From Escherichia phage phi458: 44,850 nt of DNA. Location of the stretch: sequence record OP434518; one strand, 5' to 3'. Both the position numbers and the translations under genes were made by a program. Shown piece after piece: positions 61-44,439 of the stretch. The notes beneath the pieces are model-generated. The model was not told the DNA's origin, searched no databases, and saw only the letters and a program-made list of their open reading frames with translations. How positions within the stretch are numbered: position 1 is the first letter of the stretch; every line of letters begins with the position of its first letter.

Positions 61-1224
61 TTACACATCATTAGTACCTTCCTTATTTTTTGACTGGGAC
101 AAATTTGGGACCGATGGGTTCAGGATCGAGTCTATTTGCCGTGCGTGTTCGGTAAGGTGATTAGGTGCAAGGTGAGCATATCGACGAACCATTTCGATAG
201 ACTCCCAGCCTCCCATTTCCTGTAACACTGACAACGGGACTCCGGCTTGAACCAGCCAACTTGCCCAGGTGTGTCTCAAGTCGTGAAATCTGAAATCATC
301 AATACCAGCCCGTCTCAGCGCCGCTTTCCAGGCTGTGTTTGCGTCATACCGCATCTTCCTTACTGTTGGCGCTTTCGTTCCGTCTGGTTTGGTACAGCTT
401 TCCTTGTACACAAATACCCAACGGTGATGATTCCCGATTTGTTTTTTCAATACGCGACATGCAGTATCATTCAGCGCAACGCCAATTGCGCGGTTTGATT
501 TACTCTCTTCCGGGTTTATCCATGCCACCCGGCGCTGCATATCTATTTGTTGCCATTCAAGGTTGATGATGTTCGAGCGTCTTAAGCCTGTTGCCAGTGC
601 AAATTCAACAACAGACTTTAATGGCTCCGGACATTCATCAATCAGCCTTTGTGCTTCATGGGGCTCCAGCCAGCGGATCCGTTTATTCTTTGGTTGAGGC
701 ACTTTAATAATTGGTGCCTTATCCAGCATTTTCCATTCACGCTCTGCGGCTCTTAGTAGGGCCTTTATAAATGAAAGATGCGTAGCCTTCGTTGCAACGG
801 ACGCTGGTTTTGGCGTGTATTCTGGAACAGGTTTCCCTTTTTTTCTGCATGCTTCTGCTCTGAGTTTCCAGTTTTCCTCATGACGCCGGTTCGTCATTTT
901 CTGCATTGCTGAATAAATTTTTGATTCAGTAATGTCTCTTAGTTGCATCCCTGCGAAATGTTGAAGCCAGAATCCGATCCGGCTTTTGTCATCGTCCAGT
1001 GATTTTTTATGTGCTTTCTCTTCAAGCCACCTGACACACGCTTCCTCGAACGTCATATCAGGTATTTCACCAAGTTTGCTGACCCGCCATGCTTCAGCCT
1101 TTAGCTTGTCATGGAGCTCTGTCGCCTGCCTTTTGTCCTTTGTTCCAAGAGACTGTTTAAATCTTTTACCGTTCGGCAATGTGAAACTGGCGTACCATAT
1201 TTCACTTCTGCGGAAGAGTGACAT
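61..1224 (-). CDS. int: Tyrosine-recombinase integrase
   Basis: 387-aa ORF beside attL; C-terminal catalytic motifs HDLRHTWAS and RRYAHL typical of phage integrases. Confidence 0.9.
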
Positions 1225-3530: not shown

Positions 3531-4775
3531 TTATTCGCACAGACCGTAGCGTGAAGAGCAAACCTCTATATCGAGACTTGCTTTTACAAGATCGTAGACC
3601 TTGCCACCGCGCCCTGTTTTTGCCCACTCTACGACTTCATAAACACCCGGAGAATTAAGATCTCCACGAGGACCATAAAATCCTGACCAGTCGATGTGTT
3701 GCACATCAGGTTTTAGCCCAAAAAGTTGAATATTTCGACCAAGTGGCAGATTGAACTGTTTCATCCAGCGTTGGCTTATCTCTCCTACGCTCATCCAGTG
3801 TACCCATCTACTAGCAAGGCGTACCTTCAACTCCCATTGTTTGTGCTTTTTGATGTGCTCTGGCCAGCGCGCAGCCGTCTCTGCAATTTCCTCTTTGTTG
3901 CATAGCACGCAATTCATGCAGCCAACACGAGACGCACCTTGCATATAAAGTGGATTTGGCTTAATTCCGAAATATTTGTGAACTGCGAATACGTCCTCAG
4001 CCGTCCATTTGTGGAGCGGCAGGAAGTTGTAGAGAAAATCGGCGTCGCGCATATCGCGGGAAAACCTCTCATATCCAGCGCGCTTAGAGGACTCATCCGC
4101 GCGAACACCAGACCATTGTACGATAACATCGCCAGCATCAAGGAGCGGCTTTATGGCTGCGTCGAAAGCTATCTGAATTTTCAGTTCGTCTGTACAGAAT
4201 CGGTCGCGCAGCATAGGGAACTTGCCATGCAGAAGGGAGCAATCCAAAAAGCTATTACCGGATGGGTGCATAACGGAAAGCGCAGCATCAAGAGCAGTTT
4301 CGAACTCAATTCCCCAGCGTTCTGCTGTGCGCTTCCAGGCTTGCCCGAATTTGGTGTCAGAACGTGCGAGGGAAGGCATGACTATGCCACGGTATGCTCC
4401 CATGCGGATCATCTGTCGTTTAGACCAGTTTTTTTGCAGATAAATTCGTCGTTTGGCAAAATCTTCTTCAGTGTAAATCCGCTTCACAACCTGCACAGGG
4501 CTACAACCGATCTGCTCATGAATGCTCCTGGCGAATTCGACAGTTAGATTATGCTCATTATCCGTGTCTGCCATAACAGCATGTACCTGTTTGCCGAATA
4601 ATGTGTGCGCCACTGCGAGTGTGGCAGTGCTGTCTTTTCCTGCTGAATAATTCACGATTATCTTATGATCATTAGGGATGCGAAATTCATTTATATATCT
4701 GTTGTAGGACTCTTCTATTTCGCGAATTTTCTTGCTGATGTCTGTTGGGACAATAATTATTGCTGCCTCGTTCAT
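3531..4775 (-). CDS. PAPS-reductase/DndC-family PP-loop ATP pyrophosphatase-like protein
   Basis: PP-loop-like NYSAGKDST near the N-terminus; Cys cluster CMNCVLC; 414 aa; in the pL operon where lambda carries orf61/ea8.5/ea22. Confidence 0.6.
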   Translation of the reverse strand: MNEAAIIIVPTDISKKIREIEESYNRYINEFRIPNDHKIIVNYSAGKDSTATLAVAHTLFGKQVHAVMADTDNEHNLTVEFARSIHEQIGCSPVQVVKRIYTEEDFAKRRIYLQKNWSKRQMIRMGAYRGIVMPSLARSDTKFGQAWKRTAERWGIEFETALDAALSVMHPSGNSFLDCSLLHGKFPMLRDRFCTDELKIQIAFDAAIKPLLDAGDVIVQWSGVRADESSKRAGYERFSRDMRDADFLYNFLPLHKWTAEDVFAVHKYFGIKPNPLYMQGASRVGCMNCVLCNKEEIAETAARWPEHIKKHKQWELKVRLASRWVHWMSVGEISQRWMKQFNLPLGRNIQLFGLKPDVQHIDWSGFYGPRGDLNSPGVYEVVEWAKTGRGGKVYDLVKASLDIEVCSSRYGLCE

Positions 4776-6394: not shown

Positions 6395-6811
6395 TTATAC
6401 CTCTGAATCAATATCAACCTGGTGGTGAGCAATGGTTTCAACCATGTACCGGATGTGTTCTGCCATGCGCTCCTGAAACTCAACATCGTCATCAAACGCA
6501 CGGGTAATGGCTTTTTTGCTGGCCCCGTGGCGTTGCAAATGATCGATGCATAGCGATTCAAACAGGTGCTGGGGCAGGCCTTTTTCCATGTCGTCTGCCA
6601 GTTCTGCCTCTTTCTCTTCACGGGCGATCTGCTGGTAGTGACGCGCCCAGCTCTGAGCCTCAAGACGATCCTGAATGTAATAAGCGTTCATGGCTGAACT
6701 CCTGAAATAGCTGTGAAAATATCGTCCGCGAAATGCCGGGCTGATTAGGAAAACAGGGAAGGGGGGTAGTGAATGCTTTTGCTTGATCTCAGTTTCAGTA
6801 TTAATATCCAT
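6395..6811 (-). CDS. gam: Gam, RecBCD inhibitor
   Basis: 138 aa matching lambda Gam ([15 protein letters not shown]...). Confidence 0.95.
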
Positions 6812-6909: not shown

Positions 6910-7042
6910 TTTTTGGGACTCCTGGCTGATTAAGTATGTCGATAAGGCGTTTCCATCCGTCACGTAATTTACGGGTGATTCGTTCAAGTAAAGATTCGGA
7001 AGGGCAGCCAGCAACAGGCCACCCTGCAATGGCATATTGCAT
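6878..7042 (-). CDS. cIII: CIII, FtsH inhibitor
   Basis: Hand-translated 54-aa [57 protein letters not shown], recalled as lambda CIII. Confidence 0.85.
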   Translation of the reverse strand: MQYAIAGWPVAGCPSESLLERITRKLRDGWKRLIDILNQPGVPKNGSNTYGYPD

Positions 7043-7114
7043 GGTGTGCTCCTTATTTATACATAACGAAAAACGCCTCGAGTGAAGCGTTATTGGTATG
7101 CGGTAACGCCGCGC

Positions 7115-14636: not shown

Positions 14637-15304
14637 ATATCTACGAAAGAATTGATGGCAGCAAATACCGAAATATTTGGGTAGTTGGCGATCTGCACGG
14701 ATGCTACACGAACCTGATGAACAAACTGGATACGATTGGATTCGACAACAAAAAAGACCTGCTTATCTCGGTGGGCGATTTGGTTGATCGTGGTGCAGAG
14801 AACGTTGAATGCCTGGAATTAATCACATTCCCCTGGTTCAGAGCTGTACGTGGAAACCATGAGCAAATGATGATTGATGGCTTATCAGAGCGTGGAAACG
14901 TTAATCACTGGCTGCTTAATGGCGGTGGCTGGTTCTTTAATCTCGATTACGACAAAGAAATTCTGGCTAAAGCTCTTGCCCATAAAGCAGAAGAACTTCC
15001 GTTAATCATCGAACTGGTGAGTAAAGGTAAAAAATATGTCATCTGCCACGCCGATTATCCTTGTGACGAATACAAATTTGGAAAGCCAGTTGATCATCAG
15101 CAGGTAATCTGGAACCGCGAACGAATCAGCAACTCACAAGACGGGATCGTTAAAGAAATTAAAGGCGCGGACACGTTTATCTTTGGTCATACGCCAGCAG
15201 TGAAACCACTCAAATTTGCCAACCAGATGTATATCGATACTGGGGCAGTGTTCTGCGGAAATCTCACATTGATTCAGGTACAGGGAGAAGGCGCGTGGGC
15301 ATAA
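14633..15304 (+). CDS. ninI: NinI Ser/Thr protein phosphatase
   Basis: Metallophosphatase motifs GDLHG, GDLVDRG, GNHE; matches lambda orf221. ninH is absent. Confidence 0.9.
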
Positions 15305-15783
15305 GAGAACTAAACCTCACCAAAGAACAGCATGAGTGGCTGAATGGCTGGCTTGAACTGTGGGGCGCATGGGTTTATTCAGGTCGTCTGGAAAAGCGCA
15401 TGAGCAGCGTAATAGCGAAGTTCATGGAGAGCGTAGAGCCGGGAAGAGTTATGACAAGGCCAATGTGTAATGATGATGATGGAATGTTGATTTCTCAGGT
15501 CGTCGATTCCGTCATGTACATTGACAAGAAAGCCTTTGGAATCCTCCTCAGCTACTACGCTCATGGCTCTTCCAAGCACGCCATTGCATCTTACTATCAT
15601 CGCGTCGCAAGACCTCGCAAGATGTTATGCCGTGGCGGCGGGCGCATTCAAAAACCATCGCTCGCAACCTGTCGACGGGAAGTTGACGAAATCCTTAATG
15701 CCTCGTTGTTTATGATTTACCCGGTTCTGGATAGTGCGTTTAAAAATCGGAAACGTGTAGAGAAAATTAAACATGTAGCATAG
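15295..15783 (+). CDS. Q: Late-gene antiterminator Q (non-lambda type)
   Basis: 162-aa ORF in the Q position after nin, followed by a promoter and terminator hairpin; sequence unlike lambda Q; lies next to a phage-21-type lysis cassette. Confidence 0.7.
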
Positions 15784-15789
15784 AACGTG

Positions 15790-15870
15790 TTGACATCATT
15801 GAGCAAATGAGCAACACTATTGGCATAAGCTGCCGTTAGTGACTCTTAAGTTGCAACGGTGGCTTTTTTT
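15790..15870 (+). promoter_or_regulatory. Candidate pR' promoter and tR' terminator
   Basis: TTGACA at 15790-15795; hairpin CCGTT...AACGG followed by TTTTTTT around 15830-15870. Confidence 0.5.
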
Positions 15871-15874
15871 ATTT

Positions 15875-15949
15875 GGGTCAGTCGCATAAAGGTCATTACG
15901 GAAGGCTGTTAACCTTCTTATCGTGGTTCGAGTCCACGCTGTCCCGCCA
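15875..15949 (+). tRNA. tRNA-like element with GTT (Asn-type) anticodon arm and degenerate D-arm; possible pseudo-tRNA
   Basis: Good anticodon stem GAAGG/CCTTC with loop CTGTTAA, T-arm CGTGG-TTCGAGT-CCACG, acceptor GGGTCAG/CTGTCCC with one mismatch, CCA end; D-stem pairs poorly. Confidence 0.4.
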
Positions 15950-15954
15950 AATAT

Positions 15955-16030
15955 GCTGGTTTAGCTCCAATGGTAGAGCAGTCGCCTTGTAAGCGAATGG
16001 GTAGCGGTTCAAGTCCGTTAACCAGCACCA
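15955..16030 (+). tRNA. Phage tRNA, anticodon TGT by hand folding (Thr-type)
   Basis: 76 nt; perfect 7-bp acceptor stem GCTGGTT/AACCAGC, D-stem GCTC/GAGC, anticodon loop CTTGTAA, T-loop TTCAAGT, CCA end. Confidence 0.7.
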
Positions 16031-16148
16031 TAACTGAGCCGTAGCCACTGGCTATCCTGAACTCATCAGTGATAGTTATGCCGCGGCCTTCTTTTTTCCC
16101 CTTCCCAATATAAGAACTACGCAATCCGTTACTTGCGGAGGCGTTGCT

Positions 16149-16364
16149 ATGAAATCAATGGACAAAATCTCTACTGGCATTGCCTACGGAACATCCGCTG
16201 GTAGTGCGGGATACTGGTTTTTACAGTGGTTGGATCAGGTCAGTCCGTCACAGTGGGCTGCAATTGGTGTGCTGGGAAGTCTAGTTCTGGGCTTTTTGAC
16301 TTATCTGACAAATCTGTACTTCAAAATCAGAGAAGACAGAAGAAAGGCTGCGAGAGGTGAATAA
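16149..16364 (+). CDS. S: Phage-21-type pinholin S (dual start MKSMDK)
   Basis: 71 aa [71 protein letters not shown], recalled as S21. Confidence 0.9.
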
Positions 16365-16861
16365 TGCCTCCGTCATTACGAAAAGCTGTTGCAGCTGCTA
16401 TTGGTGGCGGGGCTATTGCTATAGCATCAGTGTTAATCACTGGTCCAGGTGGTAACGATGGTCTGGAAGGTGTCAGCTACATACCATACAAAGATATCGT
16501 TGGCGTATGGACTGTATGTCACGGACACACCGGAAAAGACATCATGCTAGGTAAAACGTATACCGAAGCAGAATGCAAAGCCCTCCTGAATAAAGACCTT
16601 GCCACGGTCGCCAGACAAATTAACCCGTACATCAAAGTCGATATACCGGAAACAACGCGCGGCGCTCTTTACTCGTTCGTCTACAACGTGGGTGCTGGCA
16701 ATTTCAGAACATCGACGCTTCTTCGCAAAATCAACCAGGGCGATATCAAAGGCGCATGTGACCAGCTACGTCGCTGGACATACGCTGGCGGTAAGCAATG
16801 GAAAGGCCTGATGACTCGTCGTGAGATTGAGCGTGAAGTCTGTTTGTGGGGGCAACAATGA
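16364..16861 (+). CDS. R: SAR endolysin (lysozyme with N-terminal signal-anchor-release domain)
   Basis: 165 aa; N-terminal Gly/Ala-rich weakly hydrophobic segment [20 protein letters not shown]; lysozyme core; start overlaps the S stop. Confidence 0.9.
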
Positions 16862-40881: not shown

Positions 40882-40962
40882 GGTGATGCTGCCAACTTAC
40901 TGATTTAGTGTATGATGGTGTTTTTGAGGTGCTCCAGTGGCTTCTGTTTCTATCAGCTGTCC
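40882..40962 (+). mobile_element. 81-bp IS1 left-end fragment (canonical IRL), tandem to the full IS1
   Basis: GGTGATGCTGCCAACTTACTGATTTAGTGTATGATGGTG... ends at CAGCTGTCC and is immediately followed by a second IS1 left end. Confidence 0.8.
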
Positions 40963-41017
40963 GGTAATGCTGCCAACTTACTGATTTAGTGTATGATGGT
41001 GATTTTAAGGTGCTTGC

Positions 41018-41293
41018 GTGGCTTCCATTTCCATCAGATGTCCTTCCTGCTCCGCTACTGAAGGCGTGGTGCGTAACGGCAAAAGCACTGCCGGACATCA
41101 GCGCTATCTCTGCTCTCATTGCCGTAAAACATGGCAACTACAGTTCACTTACACCGCCTCTCAACCCGGTACGCACCAGAAAATCATTGATATGGCCATG
41201 AATGGCGTTGGATGTCGCGCCAGTGCACGCATTATGGGCGTTGGCCTCAACACGGTTTTACGTCACTTAAAAAACTCAGGCCGCAGTCGGTAA
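41018..41293 (+). CDS. insA: IS1 InsA
   Basis: 91 aa [43 protein letters not shown]... zinc-finger/HTH. Confidence 0.9.
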
Positions 41294-44267: not shown

Positions 44268-44315
44268 ATTCGTAATGCGAAGGTCGTAGGTTCGACTCCT
44301 ATTATCGGCACCATT
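44268..44315 (+). repeat. attR core (48-bp direct repeat, copy 2)
   Basis: Identical to 1-48; upstream sequence is not tRNA-like, so this is only the duplicated tRNA 3' segment. Confidence 0.9.
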
Positions 44316-44439
44316 AAAATCAAAGAGTTACCCCATATTTAAATACACCACGTTTCCTCCTGTGCCGTATTTGTGCCATTGTAACCTTGGCAATTCATCA
44401 AAATACTGTTCTGACATCAGGCAGTGCAGGTGCAGACAT

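Follow-up and report, generated by a model that had tools for sequence, protein, structure and literature searches.

The interval between the Q antiterminator gene and the lysis genes of the lambdoid prophage Escherichia phage phi458 (OP434518; the whole 44,850-bp stretch analyzed is here called the window) contains two adjacent tRNA genes, one for tRNA-Asn(GUU) and one for tRNA-Thr(UGU), and the pair is a mobile cassette of real tRNA genes that opens the late operon of this thrW-integrated element. Both are phage tRNA genes of a kind annotated before and represent no new kind of element: the pair has previously been annotated in phage 21, Sf6, SfI and BTP1 as well as in ~7% of complete E. coli genomes. 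With regard to function, the account that we consider probable is that both tRNAs are produced late and in a Q-dependent manner, that tRNA-Thr(UGU) replaces the host tRNA thrU when the latter is destroyed by the Old nuclease, and that tRNA-Asn(GUU) is functional, most likely in a similar role. The preliminary description of the locus, which had offered several interpretations of two tRNA-like elements, is partly supported by the present analysis.

Evidence for the identity of the two elements comes from independent predictors. Specifically, ARAGORN, when applied to the whole window, calls exactly two tRNA genes, Asn (gtt) at 15875-15949 and Thr (tgt) at 15955-16030, both on the plus strand; they are 75 and 76 nt in length, respectively, each with an encoded CCA, and the former with G73. 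Rfam agrees on these coordinates, scoring tRNA-Asn at 47.3 bits (E 3.9e-07) and tRNA-Thr at 61.5 bits (E 4.9e-11) against RF00005, the gathering score of which is 29. Above that score and independently called, both elements are classed as class I elongator tRNAs, and the acceptance of both by tRNA predictors bears out the initial reading of two tRNA genes between tR' and the holin gene with anticodons GTT and TGT. In homologs of both tRNAs the cloverleaf is upheld by compensatory changes, with the caveat that the D-stem of tRNA-Asn comprises only three pairs in its lineage and two in the window copy. The bases responsible for tertiary contacts (U8, A14, G18-G19, A21 and a T-loop UUCRA) are complete in tRNA-Asn, while tRNA-Thr possesses all but A14: its position 14 is C, and relatives show C, U or G but never A. 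With this C14 and a G27.A43 mismatch, the downstream gene, originally regarded as canonical, is genuine but departs from the norm. Likewise, of the good acceptor stem and CCA ascribed to the upstream element, the CCA is indeed encoded, but the acceptor stem is imperfect, containing a U4.U69 mismatch that is kept in the lambdoid subgroup. The identity elements read by the asparaginyl synthetase are G34, U35, U36 and G73, and those read by the threonyl synthetase are G1-C72, C2-G71, G35 and U36. Each phage tRNA appears, from its sequence, to carry the appropriate set: GUU never varies in tRNA-Asn, at least 90% of 37 variants of which have G73, and 19 of 19 tRNA-Thr variants carry G1-C72 and C2-G71.

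The cassette lies within a recognizable late control region. Upstream is a phage-21-type Q antiterminator gene (15295..15783, plus strand), a 162-aa ORF that matches Pfam Phage_antitermQ (E 8.8e-25) and aligns with the Q of phage 21, followed by the late promoter pR' (15790..15825, plus strand), with a -35 element TTGACA at 15790-15795, Q-binding elements ATTGAGCA/AATGAGCA at 15798-15813 and a transcription start at ~15825. The positions of pR' and the Q-binding elements were carried over by colinear alignment from OL657228, the curated record of phage 21, and the sequence was also read directly. The intrinsic terminator tR' (15827..15874, plus strand), annotated as a terminator in phage 21 and Sf6, consists of a 17-bp interrupted hairpin and a U7AU3 tract, and its RNA folds with a dG of -20.2 kcal/mol and a z of -4.69 (0 of 200 shuffles as good). 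Neither pR' nor tR' was picked up by a simple scan for promoters and terminators; they were located by means of the phage 21 annotation and folding. The tRNA-Asn gene starts one base past the tR' U-tract and ~50 nt from the pR' start site, the latter placed by reference to the phage 21 annotation. On the 3' side of the tRNA pair, the late operon's earliest protein-coding gene specifies an S21-type pinholin (16149..16364, plus strand; Pfam Phage_holin_2_1, E 8.6e-36, the family of Bacteriophage P21 holin S; phage 21 annotation), and next to it is an endolysin (phage lysozyme) gene (16364..16861, plus strand; Pfam Phage_lysozyme, E 9.7e-46; phage 21 annotation), the phage 21 counterpart of which encodes a SAR endolysin. 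Elsewhere in the window, gam (6395..6811, minus strand; Pfam Gam, E 1.1e-64; tblastn versus lambda Gam) encodes an inhibitor of RecBCD, the product being 97.8% identical over 138 aa to lambda Gam.

This position fits Q-dependent late expression of both tRNAs. Without Q-modified RNA polymerase, transcription from pR' would end at tR', while with Q the tRNAs would form the first part of the late transcript, from which RNase P and 3'-end processing enzymes presumably cut out both molecules. The phage L paper leaves undecided whether such tRNAs are released from late mRNA, and a literature search for transcriptome evidence of their expression in BTP1 and other phages returned nothing usable. As regards timing, the tRNAs are late and gam is early, an observation that counts against a counter-defence view.

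The mobility of the cassette is evident from its surroundings. It sits behind three Q/pR' types, namely Q21 (the window and phage 21), a diverged Q (CP53 and MS 119-7) and a lambda-type Q (HK446), and abuts the terminator U-tract every time. In phage 21 (OL657228; tRNA-Asn is CPT_21_64 and tRNA-Thr is CPT_21_65), the order of the genes, the 5-nt length of the spacer and the position between tR' and the lysis genes are all as in the window, the differences being position 11 of tRNA-Asn, U in phage 21 versus C in the window, and one spacer base (15952). The nin and morphogenesis genes of the window belong to a mosaic other than that of phage 21, and its left side is nearest SfI. Sf6, SfI, BTP1 and HK446 carry the same tRNA pair; HK446 does so although it is described as encoding one tRNA, its tRNA-Asn being unannotated.

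Experimental studies bear directly on tRNA-Thr, the window copy of which is identical (76/76) to those of phage 21, Sf6 and HK446. Govande et al. (2025; PMC12445682) demonstrated protection against P2-OLD by tRNA-Thr21 (judged identical to the window gene from the sequence on record for the phage 21 genome), which also withstood cleavage in vitro, and ascribed this resistance to C28U/G42A in the CNG motif plus a shortened anticodon stem. In the same study, changing the CNG motif of tRNA-ThrU by itself gave no resistance, rescue required a UGU anticodon, and a nuclease-resistant "tRNA-Thr6" was also covered as acting against P2 Old. Similarly, the Thr(UGU) of HK446 has been reported to be a strong counter-defence (bioRxiv 10.64898/2026.07.10.737580), and in the rescue assays of both studies supplementary host tRNA-Thr protected weakly or not at all while the phage tRNA, supplied from plasmids, was protective. 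In the window, the anticodon stem of tRNA-Thr is GUCGC/GCGAA, in which the G27.A43 mismatch leaves 4 bp; positions 28-30 are UCG and 40-42 are CGA (that is, C28U/G42A), and paired CNG motifs are absent, as compared with CUG/CAG at these positions and a 5-bp anticodon stem in host thrU. It is because the anticodon stem lacks paired CNG motifs and is one base pair shorter that the phage tRNA would escape Old. Both features belong to the family as a whole, G27.A43 and U28-A42 being found in 19 of 19 distinct variants, in which the acceptor stem covaries and the stems are 94.7% paired with 4 pairs changed on both sides. Through its identity with the tested phage 21 and HK446 sequences, the window tRNA-Thr, which combines the UGU anticodon with CNG loss and a shortened stem, should likewise be protective and resistant to cleavage.

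The trigger of the nuclease is found in the same genome, as Gam activates P2 Old (PMC12445682; bioRxiv 10.64898/2026.07.10.737580). In a host harboring a P2 prophage, the Old Toprim nuclease would destroy thrU, the sole tRNA of E. coli MG1655 with a UGU anticodon, upon sensing inhibition of RecBCD by the phage's own Gam; tRNA-Thr(UGU) would then serve as a nuclease-resistant stand-in, as has been shown elsewhere for the identical sequence, and replacement of thrU would keep ACA codons readable. Viral Thr(UGU) alone gave no rescue of lambda or of recB cells (bioRxiv 10.64898/2026.07.10.737580), and a single tRNA is therefore an incomplete countermeasure.

An alternative that we regard as doubtful, though worth weighing, is that the tRNAs serve codon supply only, topping up the host pool for codons favored by the phage without any link to defence. 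A positional parallel is provided by Stx phage 933W, in which the ileZ-argN-argO tRNA genes lie downstream of pR' in the Q-to-lysis interval, as in the window; these have anticodons for rare Ile and Arg codons, are classically ascribed to codon supply and show no sequence kinship with the window tRNAs. Codon usage speaks for such a role in the case of threonine: ACA occurs in the window at 15.0 per 1000 codons, accounts for 23.5% of Thr codons and is ~2x commoner than the host figure of the SfI paper (host 7.1, SfI 17.3, both given as percentages in that paper, which also cites related ileX work), and thrU is the only host tRNA with this anticodon. For asparagine, the authors of the phage L study noted that AAC represents 24 of 25 Asn codons of the capsid gene. 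In the window, however, AAC is unbiased (20.8 per 1000; 47% of Asn codons overall and 50% in late genes), such that the comparison of anticodons with codon usage that had been proposed at the outset favors ACA but not AAC, and the SfI authors, too, saw no Asn codon bias and could assign tRNA-Asn no clear role. Moreover, codon supply leaves unexplained both the anticodon-stem mismatch and CNG loss in all 19 tRNA-Thr variants and the finding that surplus host tRNA-Thr protects little or not at all where the phage tRNA does.

The D-stem of tRNA-Asn in the window consists of G10-C25, C11.A24, A12-U23 and U13.U22 and is poorly paired, as had been recognized from the start, and this "degeneracy" has two parts, a conserved U13.U22 trait and a rare C11.A24 allele. 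The conserved part, an odd D-arm GUAU-AAAGGUNA-UUAC with U13.U22, is present in 114 of 119 tRNA-Asn copies that were collected by an anchor lying outside the D-arm. A U13.U22 D-arm is also found in T4-like virulent phages, and because these share the oddity it is a trait of the lineage and not decay. Across the lineage, the acceptor, anticodon and T stems show strong covariation, 13 of 21 pairs have changed on both sides, 91.5% of cells are paired versus 35-51% in slid controls, and the covariation score is 0.577 versus 0.06-0.16 in those controls; the anticodon loop CUGUUAA is conserved together with the anticodon and G73. We infer from these data that tRNA-Asn is a functional member of a phage-specific lineage; covarying stems and a D-arm so widely kept do not sustain the pseudogene suggestion. 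The tRNA array seen most often is Asn-Thr(UGU) (79 of 116), and tRNA-Lys never occurs in the lambdoid arrays of the Asn lineage that were surveyed. A scan of 596 Gb of genome contigs with an 18-nt D-arm pattern yielded mostly chance matches (~140 expected) and says little on taxonomic range, with a tRNA-Asn context in 9 of 106 matches. The possibility that the large-phage members of the lineage are T5-like was rejected, as megablast found nothing and the tRNA-Asn of T5 belongs to another lineage.

The second part of the D-arm anomaly is an allele of this prophage. The window tRNA-Asn is 74/75 identical to that of phage 21 and Sf6, the single difference being U11C at 15885, which replaces one of three D-stem pairs with C11.A24; among viral or genomic copies the C11 allele accounts for 1 of 116 and 1 of 119, and among E. 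coli genomes for 3 of 369. Such rarity is one of several points in favor of the proposal, unlikely in our judgment, that the tRNA-Asn of this prophage is a decaying, non-functional copy by virtue of U11C in an already weak D-stem. With this change, the D-stem is reduced to two Watson-Crick pairs that are not neighbors, at a cost of 8 Rfam bits (47.3 versus 55.3 for the phage 21 allele). In ViennaRNA predictions, D-stem pairs fall from a probability of 0.44 to one of 0.01 and the minimum-energy fold loses its cloverleaf form (pair probabilities alone were used, since full-cloverleaf energies with non-canonical pairs are not comparable to the minimum-energy fold), and further variants that break the D-stem are likewise singletons, suggesting that they are selected against. 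Weighing against decay, U11C is a lone substitution with no indel, the remaining stems and tertiary-contact bases are intact, and ARAGORN, Rfam and the NCBI annotation pipeline all still report tRNA-Asn. A C.A opposition can be tolerated with wobble-like geometry, and thermodynamic folding takes no account of modifications or tertiary contacts, considerations that likewise count against decay. Furthermore, the tR'-tRNA block that bears C11 recurs, nearly unchanged, in no fewer than three mosaic backgrounds (the window; CP53 and BS15R-A; MS 119-7), and because the block occurs in several such backgrounds the allele has persisted and recombined. The hallmarks of a pseudogene (truncation, indel, loss of anticodon loop or stems, a sub-threshold score) are absent from this full-length gene, which is one substitution from consensus. 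U11C probably weakens tRNA-Asn without making it a pseudogene, and the window copy may be impaired through this change.

If tRNA-Asn is functional, its most likely contribution would resemble that of tRNA-Thr. Host tRNA-Asn(GUU) is cleaved by P2 Old, with cleavage kinetics that have been compared with those of thrU, and it is also a secondary, biologically relevant target of AriB, the nuclease of PARIS. The two anticodons of the window correspond to two of the three AriB targets addressed by the tRNAs of T5 (PMC12409363). Relative to the host molecule, phage tRNA-Asn has C in place of U39, U in place of C41 and AAG/CUU in place of CGG/CCG, and its D-loop has A15 and A16 where host asnT has U16. 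On the 3' side of the anticodon, tRNA-Thr reads UAAGCG versus UAAUCA in the host and tRNA-Asn reads UAACCU versus UAAUCC, and the window D-loops CAAUGGUA and AAAGGUCA, compared with AGUAGGUA and AGUCGGUA in the host, have lost U16. Phage tRNA-Asn would therefore seem to lack the motifs by which AriB and P2 Old recognize host tRNA-Asn, and changes at U39 and/or 41 beside the 40|41 cut, with no U16 in the D-loop, are those expected of an AriB-evading molecule, as far as nucleotide sequence can tell. The T5 copies and both window tRNAs are alike in the replacement of U39, the change at position 41 and a D-loop without U16, though they belong to other lineages whose D-arms and stems differ. Arguing against evasion by tRNA-Asn are its full 5-bp anticodon stem and the retention of paired CNG (CAG/CUG) in its Klebsiella relatives. 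The primary AriB target, tRNA-Lys(UUU), is absent from the window, in which ARAGORN finds the two tRNA genes only; a resistant tRNA-Lys(UUU) is required for PARIS rescue, and because it is missing the window alone cannot neutralize B185-type PARIS. Replacement by tRNA-Asn of a secondary target of Old- or PARIS-type nucleases would nevertheless be the most likely counterpart to the role of tRNA-Thr. A bolder proposal, which we advance tentatively and think rather less likely than its negation, is that the lineage defined by U13.U22, A15-A16 and no U16/U17 is a dedicated nuclease-evading tRNA, its odd D-arm being part of the evasion determinant, and that lambdoid phages pair it with Thr(UGU), in some relatives Gly(UCC), as a minimal two-tRNA kit to withstand Toprim tRNases of the OLD family, P2 Old and PARIS-like systems among them.

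Two further readings fare far worse. That the Asn element is not a decoding tRNA but a tRNA-derived regulatory RNA, a processing signal or a secondary attachment site, as the preliminary description had allowed, is very improbable: the element does lie in the 5' leader, where cleavage by RNase P would free the pR'/tR' leader from late mRNA, and integration commonly targets tRNA genes, but the anticodon loop CUGUUAA, G73 and stem covariation match a decoding tRNA, the lineage also resides within large tRNA arrays of virulent phages where such a late leader is absent, the 44,850-bp window has no direct repeat matching either late tRNA, and the prophage att is instead the 3' segment of thrW, present at both 1-64 and 44268-44331, next to int (61-1224). 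Least credible of all is compensation for a host tRNA gene disrupted by integration, as suggested for HK446 (discussion of bioRxiv 10.64898/2026.07.10.737580) and prompted by integration in the threonine tRNA gene thrW, given that thrW is rebuilt upon integration (a 46-nt 3' segment is identical at 1-46 and 44268-44313), that its anticodon is CGU and that of the phage tRNA UGU, that phages integrating elsewhere, and phage genomes that are not integrated, also carry the cassette, and that a late, Q-dependent location is the wrong place for a gene serving the lysogen.

Taken together, the data make the pair a textbook-level annotation for late regions of the phage 21 type and a worked example of the recent idea that small temperate phages, too, use tRNAs for counter-defence. 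The tRNA-Thr(UGU) of the window matches to the letter the sequence that was demonstrated to replace the host tRNA lost to P2 Old in classic P2-lambda interference, and the same genome holds the Gam trigger. Its partner, tRNA-Asn, shows conservation and covariation and is nearly always found beside tRNA-Thr, and it has been overlooked in experimental work; if tRNA-Asn widens protection, it would help to explain why lone Thr tRNAs have given only partial rescue.

The window comprises a complete lambdoid prophage of approximately 44.3 kb integrated at thrW. A 64-nt direct repeat (1-64 and 44268-44331; 95% identical, with the first 46 nt identical between both prophage ends) corresponds to the 3' part of thrW, encoding tRNA-Thr(CGU), and together with a tyrosine integrase gene (61-1224, minus strand) identifies attL and attR at the same site as described for SfI and P22. 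The left half of the window is nearest to Shigella phage SfI and lambda, and encodes a YqaJ-domain protein, a RecT-family protein and the RecBCD inhibitor Gam (6395-6811, minus strand; 97.8% identical to lambda Gam), along with a lambda cIII thermoregulator element recognized by Rfam (6997-7055). Also located in the early-left region, beside the recombination genes, is a 414-aa ORF (3531-4775, minus strand) with a PAPS-reductase domain (Pfam PF01507, E 6.8e-21), a candidate equivalent of the 'queuine tRNA-ribosyltransferase' listed among the SfI RefSeq features in the matching region. In the right arm, two tandem 81-nt copies (88% identical; 40882-41043) match the terminal region of IS1, as judged from insA/insB and IS1 features annotated in phage records that match; an IS1 element, or what is left of one, with one end duplicated thus lies there.

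At the start of the late operon, a NinI-like phosphatase gene lies upstream of a phage-21-type Q gene (15295-15783), which is followed by pR' with two Q-binding elements, ATTGAGCA/AATGAGCA (15798-15813), and by the tR' hairpin (15827-15874; dG -20.2 kcal/mol, z -4.7). ARAGORN identifies exactly two tRNA genes in the window, both on the plus strand: tRNA-Asn with anticodon GTT (15875-15949; Rfam tRNA model 47.3 bits, E 3.9e-07) and, after a 5-nt gap, tRNA-Thr with anticodon TGT (15955-16030; 61.5 bits, E 4.9e-11), the gathering score of the Rfam model being 29. Downstream are the S21 pinholin (16149-16364) and then endolysin and spanin genes. The U-tract of tR' finishes one base ahead of G1 of tRNA-Asn, an architecture suggesting that transcription from pR' would reach the tRNAs only if Q suppresses tR'.

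Acceptance of both elements by ARAGORN and Rfam agrees with the coordinates, anticodons and encoded CCA ends proposed in the preliminary description, and the weak D-stem noted for tRNA-Asn (G10-C25, C11.A24, A12-U23, U13.U22) is likewise evident. The acceptor stem of tRNA-Asn, described as good, is encoded there, though with an overlooked U4.U69 mismatch (15878 and 15942); the lambdoid subgroup of the tRNA-Asn lineage retains this mismatch, the position is unpaired in 21 of the lineage's 37 distinct sequences, and other relatives display U-G, U-A or C-G. Similarly, the tRNA-Thr described as canonical is a real tRNA, but one with a G27.A43 mismatch atop the anticodon stem and a C at position 14 (15968) in place of the near-universal A14, where family variants carry C, U or G, never A.

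Both elements are ordinary, well-annotated phage tRNA genes that were already known. The region matches 91 phage records by megablast, with full-length identities of 97.6% to phage 21 and 96.8% to SfI; tRNA-Asn and tRNA-Thr are annotated at the same spot in Sf6, BTP1, SPN9CC, mEp506 and others, and the pair is explicitly described in the SfI, epsilon34 and phage L papers. It is present in 369 of 5,426 complete E. coli genomes. Among 116 genuine copies of the lineage tRNA-Asn in viral and genome collections, 79 occur as Asn-Thr(UGU), six as Asn-Phe-Thr with or without Arg or Gly, five as Asn-Gly(UCC) and seven alone, the remainder lying inside large tRNA arrays of big phages. The five Asn-Gly(UCC) copies are viral contigs in which Gly(UCC), one of the preferred targets of the P2 prophage nuclease Old (bioRxiv 10.64898/2026.07.10.737580), fills the second slot. 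The cassette is found behind at least three Q/pR'/tR' types (Q21 in the window, a diverged Q in E. coli CP53 and MS 119-7, and a lambda-type Q in HK446), each time touching the terminator U-tract. In Klebsiella phage 2b LV-2017, an Rfam match to the STnc100 sRNA (2008-2169; 80.4 bits) lies, like the tRNA genes of this phage, between Q and the lysis genes; no STnc100 match occurs in the window.

For tRNA-Thr, a mechanism has already been published for the identical sequence, as the window copy matches those of phage 21 and HK446 at 76 of 76 positions. Govande et al. (2025; PMC12445682) showed that classic P2-lambda interference acts through P2 Old, which is lethal because it cleaves host tRNA-ThrU(UGU) 3' of the C in the paired CNG motifs (positions 28-30 and 40-42), and that Thr(UGU) tRNAs supplied by phages make good this loss. 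The phage 21 version, 'tRNA-Thr21', protects cells and withstands cleavage in vitro; for this resistance, alteration of the CNG motif (C28U/G42A) must be combined with shortening of the anticodon stem. Additionally, HK446 Thr(UGU) brings plating of the Old-sensitive phages HK97, HK542 and Bas34 near wild-type, and failed to rescue lambda or recB cells (bioRxiv 10.64898/2026.07.10.737580). The resistance determinants are present in the window tRNA-Thr (stem GUCGC/GCGAA, G27.A43 unpaired, UCG at 28-30 and CGA at 40-42), whereas host thrU has a 5-bp stem, ACUGA/UCAGU, with CUG/CAG. The unpaired G27.A43 and the loss of CNG are found in 19 of 19 distinct tRNA-Thr family variants, in which the acceptor stem covaries at three pairs. 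Gam, a trigger of Old, is encoded by the same prophage, and tRNA-Thr would substitute for host thrU destroyed by Gam-triggered P2 Old.

Codon supply alone, in which the tRNAs top up the host pool, is a plausible alternative for tRNA-Thr: ACA is used at 15.0 per 1000 codons in the window against a host figure of 7.1 (SfI paper), which also implies that loss of thrU would hit the prophage hard. Such an explanation leaves the conserved stem mismatch of tRNA-Thr unaccounted for, and it does not extend to tRNA-Asn, since AAC constitutes 47-50% of Asn codons, showing no bias; the SfI authors reached the same conclusion.

The D-arm of tRNA-Asn, previously termed degenerate, is for the most part shared by its lineage and conserved there, with a single rare substitution added. 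The window copy differs from those of phage 21, Sf6, L and HK446 by one base, C for U at position 11 (15885), such that the lineage D-stem is G10-C25, U11-A24, A12-U23, U13.U22. This D-arm (GUAU-AAAGGUNA-UUAC, preceded by C9) is a trait and not decay: it is common to Klebsiella lambdoid phages and virulent Straboviridae (Mosigvirus G2285, Gualtarvirus PSTRCR_127), with C13-G22 replacing U.U in a Stephanstirmvirinae relative. In a collection anchored outside the D-arm, the D-stem is exact in 114 of 119 copies, loop position 20 alone varies freely, and each stem-breaking variant, U11C included, occurs once. Across the 37 distinct lineage sequences, 91.5% of cloverleaf cells are paired compared with 35-51% when partners are slid; both partners vary in 13 of the 21 pairs (covariation score 0.577 versus 0.06-0.16), and pairing in the anticodon stem is complete (100%). 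Because the D-arm served as bait for most of these sequences, its invariance among them is partly built in, and independent support is provided by the second scan, anchored outside the D-arm, and by BLAST-derived sequences. The GUU anticodon and G73, identity elements for E. coli AsnRS, are conserved across the lineage. A chimeric tRNA-Asn variant in two viral contig copies joins a lineage-like 5' two-thirds to an unpairable 3' T-stem and acceptor strand (…GGTTCGATTCCCGCTACCCGCTCCA) from another tRNA, suggesting that tRNA genes recombine at the conserved T-loop.

Whether U11C has abolished tRNA-Asn function in this prophage is a separate matter. U11C is a rare allele (3 of the 369 E. coli genomes with a match; 1 of 116 copies in the array census), and it takes the Rfam score from 55.3 down to 47.3 bits and the predicted D-stem pair probability from approximately 0.44 to 0.01. 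Nonetheless, the tR'-tRNA block carrying U11C is near-identical (one difference, 15826-16041) in prophages with heavily diverged Q/pR' that also differ in nin and lysis genes, indicating that the allele has persisted and moved via recombination. Pseudogenization of the Asn copy in this prophage is possible, though less likely than not. Compensation for a disrupted integration-site tRNA, proposed for HK446 (bioRxiv 10.64898/2026.07.10.737580), is contradicted here, as integration restores thrW, its anticodon (CGU) is not that of the phage tRNA-Thr (UGU), and the tRNA genes appear to be under late control. Earlier suggestions that the Asn element is a regulatory RNA or a secondary attachment site find no support, given stems that covary as a tRNA (37 sequences), arrays in big phages, and an att repeat that is thrW, at 1-64 and 44268-44331.

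A replacement or evasion role for tRNA-Asn, suggested by comparison of motifs, is possible but held tentatively. Host tRNA-Asn(GUU) is itself a substrate of P2 Old, although thrU is cleaved faster (Govande et al., 2025; PMC12445682). A second Toprim nuclease, PARIS AriB, has tRNA-Lys(UUU) as its primary target and host tRNA-Asn(GUU) as a secondary one, and cuts between 40 and 41, adjoining a U36-A-A-U39 motif. Cleavage of tRNA-Lys is lost with U39A and impaired by A41C or the D-loop change U16C, and rescue is complete only when resistant versions of the Lys, Thr and Asn tRNAs are all supplied (PMC12409363). Host asnT has UAAUCC, CGG/CCG and D-loop AGUCGGUA, whereas the window tRNA-Asn has UAACCU, AAG/CUU and D-loop AAAGGUCA; these motif positions therefore depart from the host sequence, a feature shared with the validated T5 tRNAs. 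Against such a role, tRNA-Asn has all 5 bp of its anticodon stem, and changing CNG by itself gave tRNA-ThrU no resistance; a Klebsiella tRNA-Asn allele retains CAG/CUG; Asn is absent from the preferred Old targets (bioRxiv 10.64898/2026.07.10.737580); and the pair has no accompanying tRNA-Lys. Moreover, phage and host tRNAs are identical at just 41 of 76 (Asn) and 50 of 76 (Thr) positions, differences so numerous that motif changes alone constitute weak evidence. AriB reportedly contacts the D-loop, and C14 of tRNA-Thr may matter in this regard or be merely tolerated.

HK446 (JQ086372) carries tRNA-Asn with the U11 allele (611-685) and tRNA-Thr (691-766) behind its lambda-type Q/pR'/tR'; both are detected by ARAGORN, neither is annotated in the GenBank record, and the phage is described as having one tRNA (bioRxiv 10.64898/2026.07.10.737580). 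The residual interest of the cassette lies in its tRNA-Asn partner, which, as in HK446, is often unannotated.
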